Positions 23,687-61,454 of a stretch of DNA of 64,000 nucleotides are shown in pieces (position 1 is the first letter of the stretch; the number at the start of each line of letters is the position of its first letter). The notes below the pieces were generated by a model, which saw only the letters and a program-made list of their open reading frames with translations, made no database searches and was not told the origin of the DNA. Made by a program: the position numbers and the translations under genes. The DNA is taken from NCBI RefSeq assembly GCF_030013595.1, contig NZ_CP122768.1; one strand, 5' to 3'. This DNA is from Escherichia coli (GTDB lineage: Bacteria > Pseudomonadota > Gammaproteobacteria > Enterobacterales > Enterobacteriaceae).

Positions 23687-26600
23687 TCAGTACCTCCCGT
23701 TAGGAACAGAAAATCCAGGCAAACGCCTTAGATTTTCCCACGATTCAGGGAAGTGAGTTAAGATCACTGGTGTTTTCCCTATCTGACTTGTTGCAGTAAA
23801 CAAACCTGTTTCAGGATCATAATAGCCTACTCTAGGTTTATTCGTATACCTATCTCTATAAGTAAATTTCCTGCCATTTTGTATCGTGGTTCTTGCACTA
23901 ATATCATATTCTTTTACTGAATTTGCACCGACTTGTGAGCCATGTTTTTCAAAGTGATCTCTTAGGCCCGGCCCATCAACATTTTGTCGTGCTTTATTCC
24001 ATTTTGCATTTTTAGCCGTACCACAAAATAACCCAAGCGGATCGATCCAGCTTAACGGATTTGGCACATAAGCATAGAGGTTCAGCCCACCGTTTAATCC
24101 TATCGGGTCCGTTACCATGAACCGCCCGACATCCGGATCATAGTACCTGTGCAGATTGTAATGCAGCCCCGTTTCCCTGTCGAGGTACTGTCCCTGGTAG
24201 CGCAGGTTCTGCTCCACCCCGCCGTGGTCCTTCTCCTGTATCGTGTTACCCCAGACCTGATACCCCGTCTCCCACACGATTTTCCCGTCGCTGTCCGTCA
24301 TCTCTTCCGGCGCGCCGTTCACATCCGTGTGAAAATACAGTATCCGGTTCGGGCCCTCTTTGCCCGCCTTATCCACCCGCGCCAGCGGTTCATAACTCCC
24401 CGGGTCCCTGTAGATGTACAGGCTGTCTGTTCCCTCCGGCCTGCTCTCCTGCGCCAGCCGCATTCCGTCCCATAAAAATTTTGTCCGGTTGTACGGTTTA
24501 CCGTCAGGACTGATGTGCTGTTTTTCCGTCCGCCTCCCCAGCGCATCGTACACATACCGGTACGTCCCCCGCGCTGTCGTCACTTCCACCATCCGGTGTT
24601 CCGCATCATAACGGTAACTCTGCGTGCCGCTCCGCCCCTCCTTTTCCACCGCACGGCCAAATTCGTCGTAACGGTAGTGCACACCACGGTAAGACATCAG
24701 CCGGTTGAACGGCACCACGCTGTTTTCTGCCGTGGCCCTTTCCCCCGCGCGCCGCGCCAGCAGGTTTCCCGCCGCGTCGTACTGCCAGCTCGCCAGATAC
24801 CCCTCATCCTCCGAGCGGCACGCCGTGATGCGCCCCGTGGGGTCGTAGAAGTAATCCGTTTCCCCCCGCCGGCTGTGCCGCGTCTTCAGCAGTTCATCCT
24901 CGCCACTGTAGCTGTACTGCCGGTCCGTGAACGTCTCCGGTACCCCCCCGCGCATCCCGCTGTATGTCTCCCTGCGCTTCAGCCGCCCGCCGGGGTCGTA
25001 AAGCTGCCGCGTGCTCAGTCGCCCCTGGCTTCTGAGCACTTCACGGTGCAGGGCGTCACGTGTGAACTCGCTGATGACCTCCCGGTCCAGATTTATCTGC
25101 TGGAGATGGCCGCTGCCGTAGTACAGATGACGCTGCGTTCTGCCGTCCGGAAAGGTGGTGGCTGTCCGGTTGCTGAGTTCATCGTACTGATGGGTCAGGA
25201 CGCCCTGCGCCGTCTCCTCAGTCAGCATCCGCCCCAGTCTGTCGTAACTGAAGCGGATAATCTCCGGTGCGTCTGTTTCCCCGGCATCCGACCGTCGGCG
25301 GCGGATTTCCAGTAGCTGGTCTGCCGCATCATGGACGTATTCCGTACGGCTATCGGCTGTCTCCTTTGCCGTAAGCCGGCCCGCCGCATCACGTGCCAGC
25401 CGATGGCGGATTTCACCGCCCCGGTCCCCGGTGAACACCACTTCCGTGACCGCGTTCAGCGCGTTGTAGCGGTACGTCTGGCGGCAGCCGTCCGGATTTA
25501 TCTGCTCCGCCAGACGGTCCAGCACATCATGGCGGAACCGGTAGCTTTCTCCGTTCTCGTTTGTCAGCGTGACCAGACGCCCGTAAGCATCGTACCCGAA
25601 TGCCGTCCTGCGCCCCGTCGCGTCCGTCCGGCTGCGCACCCGGCCCTGCCCGTCCCGCTGCCAGCGCGTTATCCTCCCCATCGGGCTGGTGTACTTCACC
25701 AGCCTGCCCGCCGCGTCCGACTGGTAATTCACCGTGCGGCCGTCCGCCAGTATCACCTCCGTCAGGTGGCCGCTGTCGTCATACCCGTAGCGCGTGCTGT
25801 GGCTCTGCGCGTCTGTCATCCGTATCAGCCGCGTGCGTTCGTCGTAGAACCAGGCCGTCTGCGAGCCGGAACAGTCCGTGTGCCGCATGAGCTGCCCGTC
25901 TTCGTTCCACTGAAGGTATTTATTCCCCCCGCGCGCATCGGTTATCTGCACCACCTGGCCGTGGCGGTCATACTGATACCGGGTGTTCTGCTGCAGCGGG
26001 TCGGTCACCGCAAGAAGATTGCCGCGTTCATCGTACTCACAGCACCAGCTGTTCCCCGCCGCGTCCACCTCCGTTTCCGGCTGGTGCCACACCGGGTGCC
26101 ACTGTGTCTGTGCCACCCGCCCCAGCGGGTCGTGCGTCTCCGTGATATGCCCCTGCCGGTCATACACATAGCGCCATTTGCCGCCCTGCGCATCGGTCAT
26201 TCCCAGTAACAGCCGTTCTTCGTCGCTCCAGCGGAACGTCGTCACCTGCCCGGCTTCGTCCTGGTACGCCGTCACCTGGTTCTGCGCGTCCCACTGATGA
26301 TAACGCGTGCGCCCCAGCCCGTCCGTCACGCACAGCCTGCGTGACGCCAGGCTCCACGCCAGCCGGTACTGTTCACCGCTGTCCGTGTGGTGCCCCGTCA
26401 CCCGCCACGCTGCGTCATCCGGGCCTTCATACCAGCCCCACTGGTAATAATACCCTTCGCCGCCCGGCTGGCGGTGCAGGGTCATGCAGTGGTTTTCGTC
26501 GTAAGCAAACTCGCGCAGCAGGTGTCCCGTGCTGTCGTACACGCCGTTCAGGTCGCCGGCCTCGTCATAGCGGTAACGACGCAGCAGTAAAGGAGCCGTC

Positions 26601-28339
26601 TCAGGGAAATGCTGATAAATCTGTGTCACCCGCCGGGGATGCGCCGCCAGTTCATAATGCAGACGGATGCACGGACGCTGCTGTTCACCGCTGATTTGCG
26701 TGATGCGCCCCAGCTCGTCGTAGTACAGATTCAGACAGTTGCTGTTGCGGTCGCCCAGCATTTTCAGCCGCTGGCGCTGCGGGTGATGCGGGTCGGCCTC
26801 AAACAGAAAAAACTGCCCGTCATCGCTGCTGATAAGCCAGTGCCCCTGCTCACCCCGCCTTACCGCCAGTCCTTCGCCGGGGCTGTAAAACCCGCTCCCC
26901 GGCAGCACGGCCTCCATATCCAGGCGTCGTCCCATGCCCGACACAAAGGTCATACAGTTTTCGTCAGCAGTACCCGGCGTGCGCTCGAGGCTGACTTCAT
27001 ACATCACGCTCCAGCCCTGCCCGAACATCCCTTCCGTGCGGTCGTCACGACTGCTGTACACGCGCTGCCAGTCCAGCGGAAAGTGGCCCGGCAGACTGAA
27101 ATCGAAGTCATCGTCATCCGCCAGATATTTGGCTCCGGTGGCGGCATTGACCGGATGCGGAAGGGCACTGATGGCCTTCTGCGTCATCACCCCCATCCCG
27201 ACACTGGCAGCAAAACAGGCGATTTTAGAAAGCATTTTGCCCGGGCGAAGAAACATCAGCGCCACAGTTGCCACCAGGGTTATCTGCGACCTGCCGCTTC
27301 TGATATCCCTGACCACCAGTAACGGACCGCCAATGCGGACATCCGGTGACACAAACGCCCCGTTCCCCGGCTCATTCACCACCCAGGCCTCGCAGGTGCA
27401 GCGTGCCCCGCTGCGTGCCGCCGGCTGGCTGTTGATACGCACATCCCGCGCGCCTTCCGCGATATATTCCGCTGCGGGCGGTTCATCATCGCCTTTGAAC
27501 AGATTACTGATGCTGCCAATAACCGCATTCACTCCCTGAAAGGCGGTTTCCAGCATACCGCCCGGACTCAGCAGGTTAAGGGCCGTTCCCAGAGGGTCAT
27601 CCAGAAAGGCGGCTTTTTTTTGTGCGAGAAACTGCGTCAGTGAGGAGGGATGTTTATGGCAGTCGATTTTATCGTCAGGGGTCGGGGTGGAGCCCGGGGC
27701 CGCACTGGCCACGGTGGGCTGCCATAGTTCCGACACAAAATGTGTCACGCCATCCACCATTTCAGAACGCCCTTCTTCCGTACTGAGCTGGTCATGCAGC
27801 GCCCGGGACATCAGCACAGGCCCTGTCACCGGGTTAACCGCCAGGGCTATGGCCCCCGCCATTTCCAGATATTCCCCGGCCACATCCCGGAACGTTCTGG
27901 CGTCCTCCTGACGCTGCGCTTCTTCCTGTTCCGCCTTCGCCTGTGCCTCCTGCGCCTCAATGTCCTGCCGCGATGCCGCAGTCGCCGCTGCCCGCGCGGC
28001 AGGTTTGCTGTTGATCCATGTGTCGCCAGAGCCGGTGAGGATGTAACCTTCAATCTGAGGCGGGAAAAGCCAGTTCGCCAGTTGCTCACTTTCCCTACTG
28101 ATTCGGTCATTCCAGCCCTGATACGACATAAATACCGCTGTTGCTATACCGATCGCTAAAATGGTTGAGCAGCCCAGCGTTGCCACTTCAACTCCGCCCA
28201 GCGCCGCCATGGTTCCGACAACCAGAACATCCACCAGGGCTGTGGCGGCAACCTCTACAACTGCCCCCAGCACATCTGCCATAAACGACGTATGCAGCAG
28301 GGCATCACCCTGCCTTGCCGCCCAGAATGCCTCTTCCAT
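23687..28339 (-). CDS. Rhs-family polymorphic toxin: prePAAR motif and hydrophobic segments, PAAR-like region, YD-repeat core, DPxGL motifs, variable C-terminal toxin domain
   Basis: ORF track 1550 aa; N-terminal AARQGDALLH (AARxxDxxxH) then hydrophobic stretches; many YD/RYxYD repeats; VTDPIGLNGG...PNPLSWIDPLGL followed by a ~113-aa basic tail; occupies the K-12 rhsC position but differs from K-12 RhsC at both termini. Confidence 0.92.
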   Translation of the reverse strand: MEEAFWAARQGDALLHTSFMADVLGAVVEVAATALVDVLVVGTMAALGGVEVATLGCSTILAIGIATAVFMSYQGWNDRISRESEQLANWLFPPQIEGYILTGSGDTWINSKPAARAAATAASRQDIEAQEAQAKAEQEEAQRQEDARTFRDVAGEYLEMAGAIALAVNPVTGPVLMSRALHDQLSTEEGRSEMVDGVTHFVSELWQPTVASAAPGSTPTPDDKIDCHKHPSSLTQFLAQKKAAFLDDPLGTALNLLSPGGMLETAFQGVNAVIGSISNLFKGDDEPPAAEYIAEGARDVRINSQPAARSGARCTCEAWVVNEPGNGAFVSPDVRIGGPLLVVRDIRSGRSQITLVATVALMFLRPGKMLSKIACFAASVGMGVMTQKAISALPHPVNAATGAKYLADDDDFDFSLPGHFPLDWQRVYSSRDDRTEGMFGQGWSVMYEVSLERTPGTADENCMTFVSGMGRRLDMEAVLPGSGFYSPGEGLAVRRGEQGHWLISSDDGQFFLFEADPHHPQRQRLKMLGDRNSNCLNLYYDELGRITQISGEQQRPCIRLHYELAAHPRRVTQIYQHFPETAPLLLRRYRYDEAGDLNGVYDSTGHLLREFAYDENHCMTLHRQPGGEGYYYQWGWYEGPDDAAWRVTGHHTDSGEQYRLAWSLASRRLCVTDGLGRTRYHQWDAQNQVTAYQDEAGQVTTFRWSDEERLLLGMTDAQGGKWRYVYDRQGHITETHDPLGRVAQTQWHPVWHQPETEVDAAGNSWCCEYDERGNLLAVTDPLQQNTRYQYDRHGQVVQITDARGGNKYLQWNEDGQLMRHTDCSGSQTAWFYDERTRLIRMTDAQSHSTRYGYDDSGHLTEVILADGRTVNYQSDAAGRLVKYTSPMGRITRWQRDGQGRVRSRTDATGRRTAFGYDAYGRLVTLTNENGESYRFRHDVLDRLAEQINPDGCRQTYRYNALNAVTEVVFTGDRGGEIRHRLARDAAGRLTAKETADSRTEYVHDAADQLLEIRRRRSDAGETDAPEIIRFSYDRLGRMLTEETAQGVLTHQYDELSNRTATTFPDGRTQRHLYYGSGHLQQINLDREVISEFTRDALHREVLRSQGRLSTRQLYDPGGRLKRRETYSGMRGGVPETFTDRQYSYSGEDELLKTRHSRRGETDYFYDPTGRITACRSEDEGYLASWQYDAAGNLLARRAGERATAENSVVPFNRLMSYRGVHYRYDEFGRAVEKEGRSGTQSYRYDAEHRMVEVTTARGTYRYVYDALGRRTEKQHISPDGKPYNRTKFLWDGMRLAQESRPEGTDSLYIYRDPGSYEPLARVDKAGKEGPNRILYFHTDVNGAPEEMTDSDGKIVWETGYQVWGNTIQEKDHGGVEQNLRYQGQYLDRETGLHYNLHRYYDPDVGRFMVTDPIGLNGGLNLYAYVPNPLSWIDPLGLFCGTAKNAKWNKARQNVDGPGLRDHFEKHGSQVGANSVKEYDISARTTIQNGRKFTYRDRYTNKPRVGYYDPETGLFTATSQIGKTPVILTHFPESWENLRRLPGFSVPNGRY

Positions 28340-28357
28340 GTCCCGTTCCCTGTGTGA

Positions 28358-46968: not shown

Positions 46969-47295
46969 TTATTTGTTATTACTGCGAATTTCCTGCCAGA
47001 CCTTATCACAATCGGCTTTTACCGCCTGGTCATTACCGATTTGCGTTGCGCGCAGACACTGCTGATAATCCAGTACGCGTACACTTTCCTGGTCGGCAAA
47101 CTGCTGATGTTGTTTCTCTTTCTTTAGCACGTTTAACACGCTCTGGCAGGCTTCAATTTTTTCCGGCGAACCTTGCGCGGTGTTGATACAGGCGCTGTAA
47201 GCCTCTTTCAGACGGCTGTCTTCCTGCGGTGCGGTTGATTGCGCACAAGCTACCAGCCCCGTTGCCATCATGGCGATGAGAATCAGTTTTTTCAT
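46969..47295 (-). CDS. chiQ: chitooligosaccharide-operon lipoprotein ChiQ
   Basis: ORF track 108 aa MKKLILIAMMATGLVAC (lipobox)...; downstream of chiP. Confidence 0.88.
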   Translation of the reverse strand: MKKLILIAMMATGLVACAQSTAPQEDSRLKEAYSACINTAQGSPEKIEACQSVLNVLKKEKQHQQFADQESVRVLDYQQCLRATQIGNDQAVKADCDKVWQEIRSNNK

Positions 47296-47344: not shown

Positions 47345-48209
47345 TCAGAAGATGGTGAATGGTGCGATTACCATGAATTTCACGTCGCGCTCATCCTGGA
47401 AAATGTTGCCGTAACCACCGCCCCAGCTTGGGATGTCGGAGTGGTTGTCATATTCGGTGAAATGCAGTTTGAACATCGTGCCCTTGGCGCGACCGTCCTG
47501 AATGGTGTACACCGCATCCAGGCTATATGCAGACTCTTCAATAGTCCGGTTCTTGTCGTAGTACGCATCCGGATTGCTCTGCCAGGTAGCGGGTTTAGCA
47601 TCCCATGCGTAAACGTAGGAAGCGCCGATGGCGAAGCCTGGAAGATTCCAGTTTTTCAGGTCATACATCGCACCGAAGAAGACCGCTTTTTCGCCGTTGG
47701 CGTTGAAGTCAGAACGGTTATCCCACCAGATATCCAGGCGACCGTTCGAGGAAGCGTAGGTTGGAGTCATACGTTGCAGGAAGTATCCCTGCTGACCGTC
47801 GGCTTTAACCCAGGTGCCTTCCAGACGCAAATCCACTACATCAGCCGCCCGGTAACCAAAGGTCAACGCTTGCAGCCAGGCGGTGCCGTCATAAAGATCG
47901 TTGACGCTGCGATCGTCAACTTTATCGCGCGTACCATAGAACTGGTAGCTGGTGGTTAACGGGCTACCGGCGATATCAAATTTGTAGCTGGCTTTGGCAA
48001 AATATTGATCGATATCCCCTTCTGCCTGACCAAATGCCGCTTCCAGTACAAAGTTATTTTTGAAGTCGTACTTCGCACCGATGGAGTGCAGATAATCAAC
48101 TTTGGTGGTTTTATCGTTCTGATAAAACTCATCCATTTCCAGATGCCACGGTGCTTTGTATTCGTTGGTCCACATGTAGGAGAAACTCAAGGCACCAGCA
48201 TCGCCGTAA
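47345..48209 (-). pseudogene. chiP: chiP chitoporin, C-terminal fragment (gene split by IS903-family insertion)
   Basis: Frame reading ...[21 protein letters not shown]... continues the N-terminal fragment exactly across the insertion. Confidence 0.9.
48201..48209. repeat. target-site duplication (left copy), TCGCCGTAA
   Basis: Identical 9-mer at 49267..49275 immediately flanking the other IS end. Confidence 0.9.
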
Positions 48210-48227
48210 GGCTTTGTTGAATAAATC
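48210..48227. repeat. IS903 left terminal inverted repeat
   Basis: GGCTTTGTTGAATAAATC; inverse complement found at 49249..49266. Confidence 0.9.
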
Positions 48228-48286
48228 GAACTTTTGCTGAGTTGAAGGATCAGATCACGCATCCTCCCGACAACACAGACCATTCC

Positions 48287-49210
48287 GTGGCAAAGCAAAA
48301 GTTCAGAATCACCAACTGGTCCACCTACAACAAAGCTCTCATCAACCGTGGCTCCCTCACTTTCTGGCTGGATGATGAAGCGATTCAGGCCTGGTATGAG
48401 TCGGCAACGCCTTCATCACGAGGAAGGCCCCAGCGCTATTCTGATCTCGCCATCACCACCGTTCTGGTGATTAAACGCGTATTCCGGCTGACCCTGCGGG
48501 CTGCGCAGGGCTTTATTGATTCCATTTTTTCTCTGATGAACGTTCCGCTACGCTGCCCGGATTACAGCTGTGTCAGCAGGCGGGCAAAGTCGGTTAATGT
48601 CAGTTTCAAAACGCCCACCCGGGGTGAAATCGCACACCTGGTAATTGATTCCACCGGGCTGAAGGTCTTCGGTGAAGGCGAGTGGAAAGTCAAAAAGCAT
48701 GGCCAGGAACGCCGCCGTATCTGGCGTAAGCTGCATCTCGCCGTTGACAGTAAAACACATGAAATCATCTGCGCTGACCTGTCGCTGAACAACGTTACGG
48801 ACTCAGAGGCCTTCCCCGGGTTAATCCGGCAAACCCACCGGAAAATCAGGTCAGCCGCCGCCGATGGCGCTTACGATACCCGGCTATGTCACGATGAACT
48901 GCGGCGTAAGAAAATCAGCGCGCTTATCCCTCCCCGAAAAGGTGCGGGTTACTGGCCCGGTGAATATGCAGACCGTAACCGTGCAGTGGCTAATCAGCGA
49001 ATGACCGGGAGTAATGCGCGGTGGAAATGGACAACAGATTACAACCGTCGCTCGATAGCGGAAACGGCGATGTACCGGGTAAAACAGCTGTTCGGGGGTT
49101 CACTGACGCTGCGTGACTACGATGGTCAGGTTGCGGAGGCTATGGCCCTGGTACGAGCGCTGAACAAAATGACGAAAGCAGGTATGCCTGAAAGCGTGCG
49201 TATTGCCTGA
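48287..49210 (+). CDS. IS903-family transposase
   Basis: ORF track 48242..49210; GTG at 48287 gives 307 aa beginning [39 protein letters not shown], matching the IS903 transposase as I recall it. Confidence 0.9.
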
Positions 49211-49248
49211 AAACACAACCCGCTACGGGGGAGACTTACCCAAAATCT

Positions 49249-49266
49249 GATTTATTCAACAAAGCC
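49249..49266. repeat. IS903 right terminal inverted repeat
   Basis: GATTTATTCAACAAAGCC, perfect inverse complement of the left repeat. Confidence 0.9.
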
Positions 49267-49275
49267 TCGCCGTAA
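49267..49275. repeat. target-site duplication (right copy), TCGCCGTAA
   Basis: Identical to 48201..48209. Confidence 0.9.
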
Positions 49276-49817
49276 TCAAAATTCGCTCCGGCTTCCGCAC
49301 CCTGATAAGTACCTGGCATAAAGCTCCAGTGCGGCGCTAACAGCGTCTGACCGGTTGGCTGAATATAACCTGCCCTCGCCCAAACCGGACCGTATTTAAA
49401 TTTGGCCGCAGCTTTATACAGGCTTATACCGCTTTTGTCGCCGGACCAGTCTTCGTCATAGGCTTTATTACTTTTTGAAAACGCGATTTCGTTCGGGTGA
49501 GAGCTGTCGCCGTTTTCCGCCATTTCAATCGCCGTAAACGCGGCAATATCAAGGCCGAACATATCAGCAGCATAACCGGACTGAAAATCGAGGTTGGCGT
49601 TCCAGGTGGAGTGAGAAAGGTTGGTTTTGTATTTGTCGCCGTCGGTAACATCTTTACGGTCGCGTTCACGCTGCCAGTAATAGATACCGCCGGTTAAGGT
49701 TGAATCGTCGATGAATCCTTCGGCGCGAGCCTCCGGCATTGCCATAAAGCCCGACATTGCTGTAACACCGGCGATAGCCAGCGCCAGCGTACTACGTTTG
49801 CCACTAAACGTACGCAT
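49267..49817 (-). pseudogene. chiP: chiP chitoporin, N-terminal fragment
   Basis: [32 protein letters not shown]...GANFDYG, then the frame runs into the IS and stops after 10 codons. Confidence 0.9.
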
Positions 49818-60749: not shown

Positions 60750-60826
60750 GGCTACGTAGCTCAGTTGGTTAGAGCACATCACTCATAATGATGGGGTCAC
60801 AGGTTCGAATCCCGTCGTAGCCACCA
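60750..60826 (+). tRNA. metT: tRNA-Met (elongator, anticodon CAU)
   Basis: 77-nt cloverleaf GGCTACGTAGCTCAGTTGGTTAGAGC...ending CCA; anticodon loop CTCATAA. Confidence 0.95.
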
Positions 60827-60835
60827 TCTTTTTTT

Positions 60836-60920
60836 GCGGGAGTGGCGAAATTGGTAGACGCACCAGATTTAGGTTCTGGCGCCGCAAGGTGTGCGAGTTC
60901 AAGTCTCGCCTCCCGCACCA
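60836..60920 (+). tRNA. leuW: tRNA-Leu (anticodon UAG), long variable arm
   Basis: 85 nt GCGGGAGTGGCGAAATTGGTAGACGC...CTCCCGCACCA; anticodon loop TTTAGGT. Confidence 0.93.
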
Positions 60921-60943
60921 TTCACCAGAAAGCGTTGTACGGA

Positions 60944-61018
60944 TGGGGTATCGCCAAGCGGTAAGGCACCGGTTTTTGATACCGGCATTCCCTGGTTCGA
61001 ATCCAGGTACCCCAGCCA
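60944..61018 (+). tRNA. glnU: tRNA-Gln (anticodon UUG)
   Basis: 75 nt TGGGGTATCGCCAAGCGGTAAGGCACCGG-TTTTTGATA-CCGG...; anticodon TTG. Confidence 0.95.
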
Positions 61019-61052
61019 TCTTCTTCGAGTAAGCGGTTCACCGCCCGGTTAT

Positions 61053-61127
61053 TGGGGTATCGCCAAGCGGTAAGGCACCGGTTTTTGATACCGGCATTCC
61101 CTGGTTCGAATCCAGGTACCCCAGCCA
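61053..61127 (+). tRNA. glnW: tRNA-Gln (anticodon UUG)
   Basis: Identical sequence to glnU. Confidence 0.95.
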
Positions 61128-61142
61128 TCGAAGAAACAATCT

Positions 61143-61219
61143 GGCTACGTAGCTCAGTTGGTTAGAGCACATCACTCATAATGATGGGGTCACAGGTTCG
61201 AATCCCGTCGTAGCCACCA
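61143..61219 (+). tRNA. metU: tRNA-Met (elongator, anticodon CAU)
   Basis: Identical sequence to metT. Confidence 0.95.
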
Positions 61220-61267
61220 AATTCTGAATGTGTCGAATAAGTTCGGCAAATTCACAAACCAATTTGT

Positions 61268-61342
61268 TGGGGTATCGCCAAGCGGTAAGGCACCGGATTC
61301 TGATTCCGGCATTCCGAGGTTCGAATCCTCGTACCCCAGCCA
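61268..61342 (+). tRNA. glnV: tRNA-Gln (anticodon CUG)
   Basis: 75 nt; anticodon stem-loop CCGGA-TTCTGAT-TCCGG. Confidence 0.93.
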
Positions 61343-61379
61343 ATTTATTCAAGACGCTTACCTTGTAAGTGCACCCAGT

Positions 61380-61454
61380 TGGGGTATCGCCAAGCGGTAA
61401 GGCACCGGATTCTAATTCCGGCATTCCGAGGTTCGAATCCTCGTACCCCAGCCA
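61380..61454 (+). tRNA. glnX: tRNA-Gln with anticodon CUA (amber-suppressor allele, supE-type)
   Basis: Identical to the tRNA at 61268..61342 except a single G to A change in the anticodon (TTCTAAT versus TTCTGAT); glnX name assigned by position next to ubiF. Confidence 0.9.

Follow-up and report, generated by a model that had tools for sequence, protein, structure and literature searches.

Interruption of the chitoporin gene chiP by a single IS903B element in an Escherichia coli chromosome

The chitoporin gene chiP is a core gene of Escherichia coli: it was found in 5424 of the 5426 complete genomes, and in 5423 a single match covers at least 80% of its length. In the 64,000-nucleotide stretch of contig NZ_CP122768.1 (assembly GCF_030013595.1) that we analysed as a whole, hereafter the window, the gene is found in two pieces on either side of an insertion sequence (Table 1). 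The question raised by this locus is how the element came to lie there and what it leaves of chiP and of the gene that follows, chiQ. In our reading, to which we assign a probability of roughly 0.96, a single copy of IS903B transposed into chromosomal chiP, giving a null chiP allele and probably silencing chiQ as well.

Table 1. Features of the interrupted chiP locus (positions in the window; the relative is NZ_CM149870.1)
Feature	Position	Strand	Basis or remark
chiQ (ybfN), lipoprotein gene of the chiPQ operon, 3' of chiP; candidate for a polar effect	46969..47295	-	intact, identical to that of the relative
chiP 3' fragment (codon 184 to stop), cut off from promoter, start codon and signal peptide	47345..48209	-	ORF map
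Target-site duplication, left copy, TCGCCGTAA	48201..48209	+	chiP nt 543-551; minus-strand reading TTACGGCGA
Complete IS903B-type insertion sequence (IS5 family, IS903 group), 1057 bp	48210..49266	+	length, ends, matches to RefSeq-named IS903B copies
IRL (left terminal inverted repeat), GGCTTTGTTGAATAAATC	48210..48227	+	shared with the ends of the five comparator copies
Transposase gene, intact, GTG start, 307 aa	48287..49210	+	ORF map, profile matches, catalytic motifs
193-aa ORF: 183 native residues and ten IS-encoded residues, then stop	49236..49817	-	ORF map
IRR (right terminal inverted repeat)	49249..49266	-	18/18 complementary to IRL
Target-site duplication, right copy, TCGCCGTAA	49267..49275	+	abuts the right end of the IS
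chiP 5' fragment (nt 1-551), coding for the signal peptide and roughly a third of the barrel	49267..49817	-	RefSeq annotation of chitoporin ChiP in the relative

A preliminary description of this DNA had reported a 1057-bp element with 18-bp inverted repeats and one transposase ORF of 307 codons inside chiP, and all of its coordinates hold. The 1057 bp that separate the duplicated 9-mers equal the length of all five comparator copies. The terminal 18-mer GGCTTTGTTGAATAAATC matches the 64-kb window only at the two ends of the element, also with up to three mismatches allowed, against a chance expectation of 0.06. Read from a TTG at 48242, the transposase frame remains open and the protein would extend to 322 aa; RefSeq annotates identical copies from that codon. 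The predicted protein scored 358 bits against the NCBIfam model for IS5-family transposases (NF033579; cutoff, 140) and matched the Pfam families DDE_Tnp_1_5 (PF13737) and DDE_Tnp_1 (PF01609). It carries D121, D193 and E259 together with the motif Y-2-R-3-E-6-K from residue 252 (Y252-R255-E259-K266), residues that we take, from published mutagenesis of IS903, to be catalytic in the IS903 transposase. The intact ends and ORF fit activity, and are consistent with a complete, apparently functional element of the IS903B type. The window holds no second copy of it and no passenger gene, and there is nothing out of the ordinary about the target site.

Direct alignment showed that the element is identical at 1056 of 1057 nt to copies in E. 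coli 201609 and in plasmid pA74T, and that its transposase is identical to the protein encoded by these copies, WP_077249883.1. The sole difference is an A in place of G at window position 49242, which is 25 nt away from the right end and falls in neither the inverted repeat nor the ORF. Nucleotide identity was 97.7% with the IS903B copy of pKP91, 95.1% with a RefSeq copy named IS903 (52 nt differences and 6 aa differences in the transposase), and 94.9% with IS102 of pSC101 (54 nt and 11 aa differences). Isoforms are delimited by at least 95% nucleotide identity to the ISfinder reference; here the name rests on the copies called IS903B in RefSeq, to which the element is 99.9% identical in nucleotides and 100% in protein, and on the match to pKP91. 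Because identity to the RefSeq-named IS903B copies is 99.9%, as compared to only about 95% for IS903- and IS102-type copies, we assign the element to the IS903B isoform and not to the IS903 or IS102 type. The earlier label, an IS903-family element, is thus right as to the group, given the close alignment and identical ends of IS903 and IS102, and is refined to IS903B. IS903 of Tn903 and IS102 of pSC101 share with the element its length, 18-bp ends and single ORF, with about 5% nucleotide divergence, whereas the IS903B copies of 201609 and pA74T, with the same 1057 bp, inverted repeats and transposase protein, differ from it in where they are inserted.

Full-length copies with 99.9% identity occur in nine E. 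coli records and one plasmid, all of them annotated 'IS5-like element IS903B family transposase', and IS903-like DNA is widespread, with matches in 1992 of the 5426 complete genomes of E. coli and in no fewer than 5000 plasmids, most of them Klebsiella plasmids. A donor copy was not found among these sequences, in that no compared copy has the A at 49242, and a scan for the right end in GTDB species-representative genomes yielded none either. This nucleotide is a possible tag for the donor copy in the source genome. Matching 9-bp flanks surround one of the five comparator copies, that of pA74T, where the duplication is ATCCATTTA; their absence from the other four, IS102 in pSC101 among them, suggests later rearrangement or recombination between copies.

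The background in which the insertion occurred was examined by searching both flanks separately against the 5,426 complete E. coli genomes and by comparing the whole window with its nearest relative by blastn. For both flanks the best matches were NZ_CM149870.1 and NZ_CM149862.1, two records from pig faeces collected in Winchester, UK, each about 99.95% identical to the window. Over 63 kb the window and NZ_CM149870.1 are 99.95% identical, with 28 substitutions and two small indels, whereas no other genome exceeded 99.2% identity to the flanks (next-best, 98.7-99.2%). Among the 5,426 genomes, these two are also the only ones whose chiP allele reaches 99% identity with the allele in the window. 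The sequence places the host in an uncommon lineage of E. coli that is not K-12. The remark in the preliminary description on the absence of IS903 from the K-12 reference chromosome has little bearing here, as the window's chiP differs from that of MG1655 at 39 of 1407 nt and the nearest relatives are the two UK pig isolates. Neither of them is among the nine E. coli records with a full-length 99.9% copy of the element.

Among the differences from the nearest relative elsewhere in the window, two may be noted. One of the indels is a 3-bp ACA at 24023..24025, present in the window and absent in the relative, inside a gene for an RHS-repeat core protein (~23690..28340, minus strand). This RHS toxin gene has as neighbours a toxin gene of the SymE family and a pseudogene related to DcrB, within an accessory island that is bordered by ybgA and ybfA. 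The other is a substitution at 61414, in the last tRNA gene of a cluster of seven (60750..61451) between asnB and ubiF, which reads Met-Leu-Gln-Gln-Met-Gln-Gln in the relative's annotation. In an Rfam scan, the seven tRNAs at 60.7-61.5 kb were the only matches in the window, and none lay close to chiP.

We then consider what the insertion does to chiP, to which the transposase gene lies antisense. The insertion cuts this frame behind nt 551, in codon 184, and translation from the chiP start would end 31 nt inside the IS with a stub of 193 aa. No uninterrupted chiP frame that encodes both a signal peptide and a complete barrel is present in the window. The two fragments were previously described as joining in frame across the insertion, and this is what we observed: in silico removal of 48210..49275 connects ...GANFDYG to DAGALSF... 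and restores an ORF of 1407 nt and 468 aa. The reconstructed protein has two amino acid differences from K-12 ChiP (I224F, D246Y), matches Pfam OprD (1.3e-23), and aligns over residues 33-468 with the chitoporin structures 7VU1/7VTZ (E=7e-303). The gene order, fur - chiQ - chiP - glnS - nagE (then nagBACD), is colinear with NZ_CM149870.1 and with the K-12 annotation.

Since the stub would comprise no more than the signal peptide and roughly a third of the barrel, it is safe to infer that it cannot form a porin. The chiP allele can, with similar safety, be taken as null and ChiP function as lost; the locus is a pseudogene in this strain. Precise excision of 1066 bp would in principle restore chiP, because both halves are otherwise intact, and a 1066-bp deletion that includes an IS903B transposase gene, of a size equal to the element plus one 9-mer, has been reported in the literature. 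The only chiP substitution relative to the nearest relative is a private non-synonymous change at window position 48016, in codon 246, which is GAT (D) in the window and TAT (Y) in both K-12 and the relative. One such change is about the background expectation (roughly 0.6 per 1.4-kb gene) and is no evidence of decay or relaxed selection.

The premature stop in chiP lies ~1.9 kb from chiQ. In the Salmonella chiPQ operon, an intragenic Rho loading site is exposed when chiP is untranslated, which causes polarity on chiQ (Bossi et al. 2012, as cited in PMC6582626). By analogy, the ~1.9 kb of untranslated RNA ahead of chiQ would be subject to Rho-dependent polarity, and chiQ would probably be silenced. 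A consensus scan of the chiP strand found only weak terminator-like hairpins and no convincing intrinsic terminator, and for this reason the argument for polarity rests on Rho. On balance, the odds lean towards the insertion being polar on chiQ. The small RNA ChiX silences chiP when chitosugars are absent (PMC6582626). Because chiP is thereby kept silent unless these sugars are present, a chiP mutation would be phenotypically quiet in most conditions. We presume that the effect on fitness is neutral or near-neutral.

A different outcome for chiQ would follow if transcription leaving the left end of the IS drove the 3' chiP fragment, chiQ or both constitutively, freeing chiQ from ChiX. Outward promoters are carried by many IS elements, and an ORF that begins at a TTG inside the element does run in frame into the 3' chiP fragment (47345..48298). 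However, the consensus scan, which is crude and which weak outward transcription could escape, found no sigma-70-like promoter on the minus strand inside the IS reading out toward chiQ, and we know of no outward promoter in IS903. The fused ORF, moreover, lacks a signal peptide as well as roughly a third of the barrel, and would give no porin. We therefore hold constitutive expression from the element to be very unlikely, and favour loss of ChiP with probable silencing of chiQ.

How the element arrived was assessed from the site itself. The 9-mer TCGCCGTAA occurs at three further places in the window, one of them inside chiP at 49529 (chiP nt 281), so its mere recurrence proves nothing. In NZ_CM149870.1, however, the match to the left flank stops at 3647233 and that to the right flank begins at 3647225, so that the two share exactly 9 bp, within an intact, annotated chiP. 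The uninterrupted chiP genes of NZ_CM149870.1, NZ_CM149862.1 and K-12 have a single copy of the 9-mer at this site (nt 543-551). Because the flanking 9-mers abut both ends of the IS and the relatives show the empty site, they are, on this comparison, a true target-site duplication produced by the insertion. The perfect 9-bp duplication proposed earlier is thus confirmed by the empty site in near-identical genomes.

Elements of the IS903 group insert by a DDE-transposase route, and a 9-bp target duplication and a single-ORF layout are typical of the family. By this family model, the transposase would have bound the 18-bp ends of IS903B, the target would have been cut with a 9-bp stagger at chiP nt 543-551, and repair would have duplicated TCGCCGTAA. 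The perfect inverted repeats and duplication, the intact transposase, the single chiP substitution, and the empty site at 99.95% identity indicate that the insertion was simple and evolutionarily recent. Of the five comparator copies, by contrast, only that of pA74T has kept its duplication. No observation speaks against the structural reading. Recent insertion had also been proposed in the preliminary description, and the repeats, the duplication and the site left empty in 99.95%-identical genomes agree with it.

Copies of IS elements are a classic source of misassembly, and it could be argued that an IS903B repeat was misplaced into chiP during assembly. The chiP-IS903B junction is absent from all 5,426 complete E. 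coli genomes, including the 99.95%-identical relatives, and the 193-aa ChiP stub is not on record among 153 billion gene calls in an exact-product look-up of public assemblies, as would be the case if the junction were an artefact. A misjoin, in contrast, would not yield a perfect 9-bp duplication of the length correct for the family, at a site that is colinear with the relative and rejoins in frame. We judge an assembly artefact to be extremely improbable as compared to a genuine insertion.

The element could also form one end of a composite transposon or of a larger acquired island. IS903 owes its first description to Tn903, whose flanking arms it forms, and IS903B is abundant on resistance plasmids. 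The two inverted-repeat matches in 64 kb, however, are both ends of the same element, and the flanks are colinear with the relative's chromosome up to the 9-mer. The inverted-repeat count and the colinear flanks effectively rule out this explanation within the window, and we give it next to no credence. No more credible is the view that the 9-mers are native chiP repeats around an old or rearranged copy of the IS, which the recurrence of TCGCCGTAA in the window and once more inside chiP might invite, and which the empty-site comparison rules out, the 9-mer being single in the relatives and in K-12 and the flanks overlapping by exactly 9 bp.

The closest published parallel to chiP::IS903B is the inactivation of mgrB in Klebsiella by the same 1057-bp element, also by simple insertion into a chromosomal gene (PMC10513040). 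In that study, 9-bp direct repeats were found around some copies, and plasmids were considered the likely donors (PMC10513040). The mgrB insertions differ in that they were selected by colistin and have a clear resistance phenotype, whereas no selective agent is evident for chiP in the window. A second parallel concerns the gene: chiP is split by IS30 into two annotated pseudogene fragments in a natural isolate, E. coli O157:H- 493/89 (NZ_CP038412.1; 3001..5630 in the locus excerpt), although the IS family and the position in chiP are different. As this case shows, chiP now and then falls to an IS insertion in lineages other than the present one. In the pig isolate HNSQ2209 (NZ_CP137737.1), which has 21 copies, a 99.9% IS903B copy overlaps the annotated porin gene ompN. 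A literature search for chiP together with IS903B returned only false positives, most of them concerning the microfluidic 'chip', and nothing relevant was found on ChiP as a receptor for phages.

Could the loss of ChiP, and probably of ChiQ, be adaptive in this E. coli lineage, which is associated with pigs? In vitro, aminoglycosides pass through ChiP (bioRxiv 10.1101/2022.09.05.506620), and the loss of OmpC/OmpF is offset by up-regulation of ChiP, as summarised in PMC11858733. If the loss were adaptive, it might close an alternative entry route for antibiotics or remove a surface receptor, and minor porins would repeatedly be lost by way of IS903B insertion, with ompN::IS903B as a further case. 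Nothing in the present analysis supports an adaptive role, and we regard one as unlikely.

The exact allele is absent from the 5,426 genomes, yet element, mechanism and outcome all follow the textbook, and the insertion raises no question on either the biology of IS elements or the uptake of chitosugars. Its value lies in the annotation of this strain, in which chiP should be recorded as a pseudogene interrupted by IS903B and chiQ as probably unexpressed. The chiP::IS903B junction also provides a clean strain-specific marker, and points to recent activity of this IS903B variant in the lineage.
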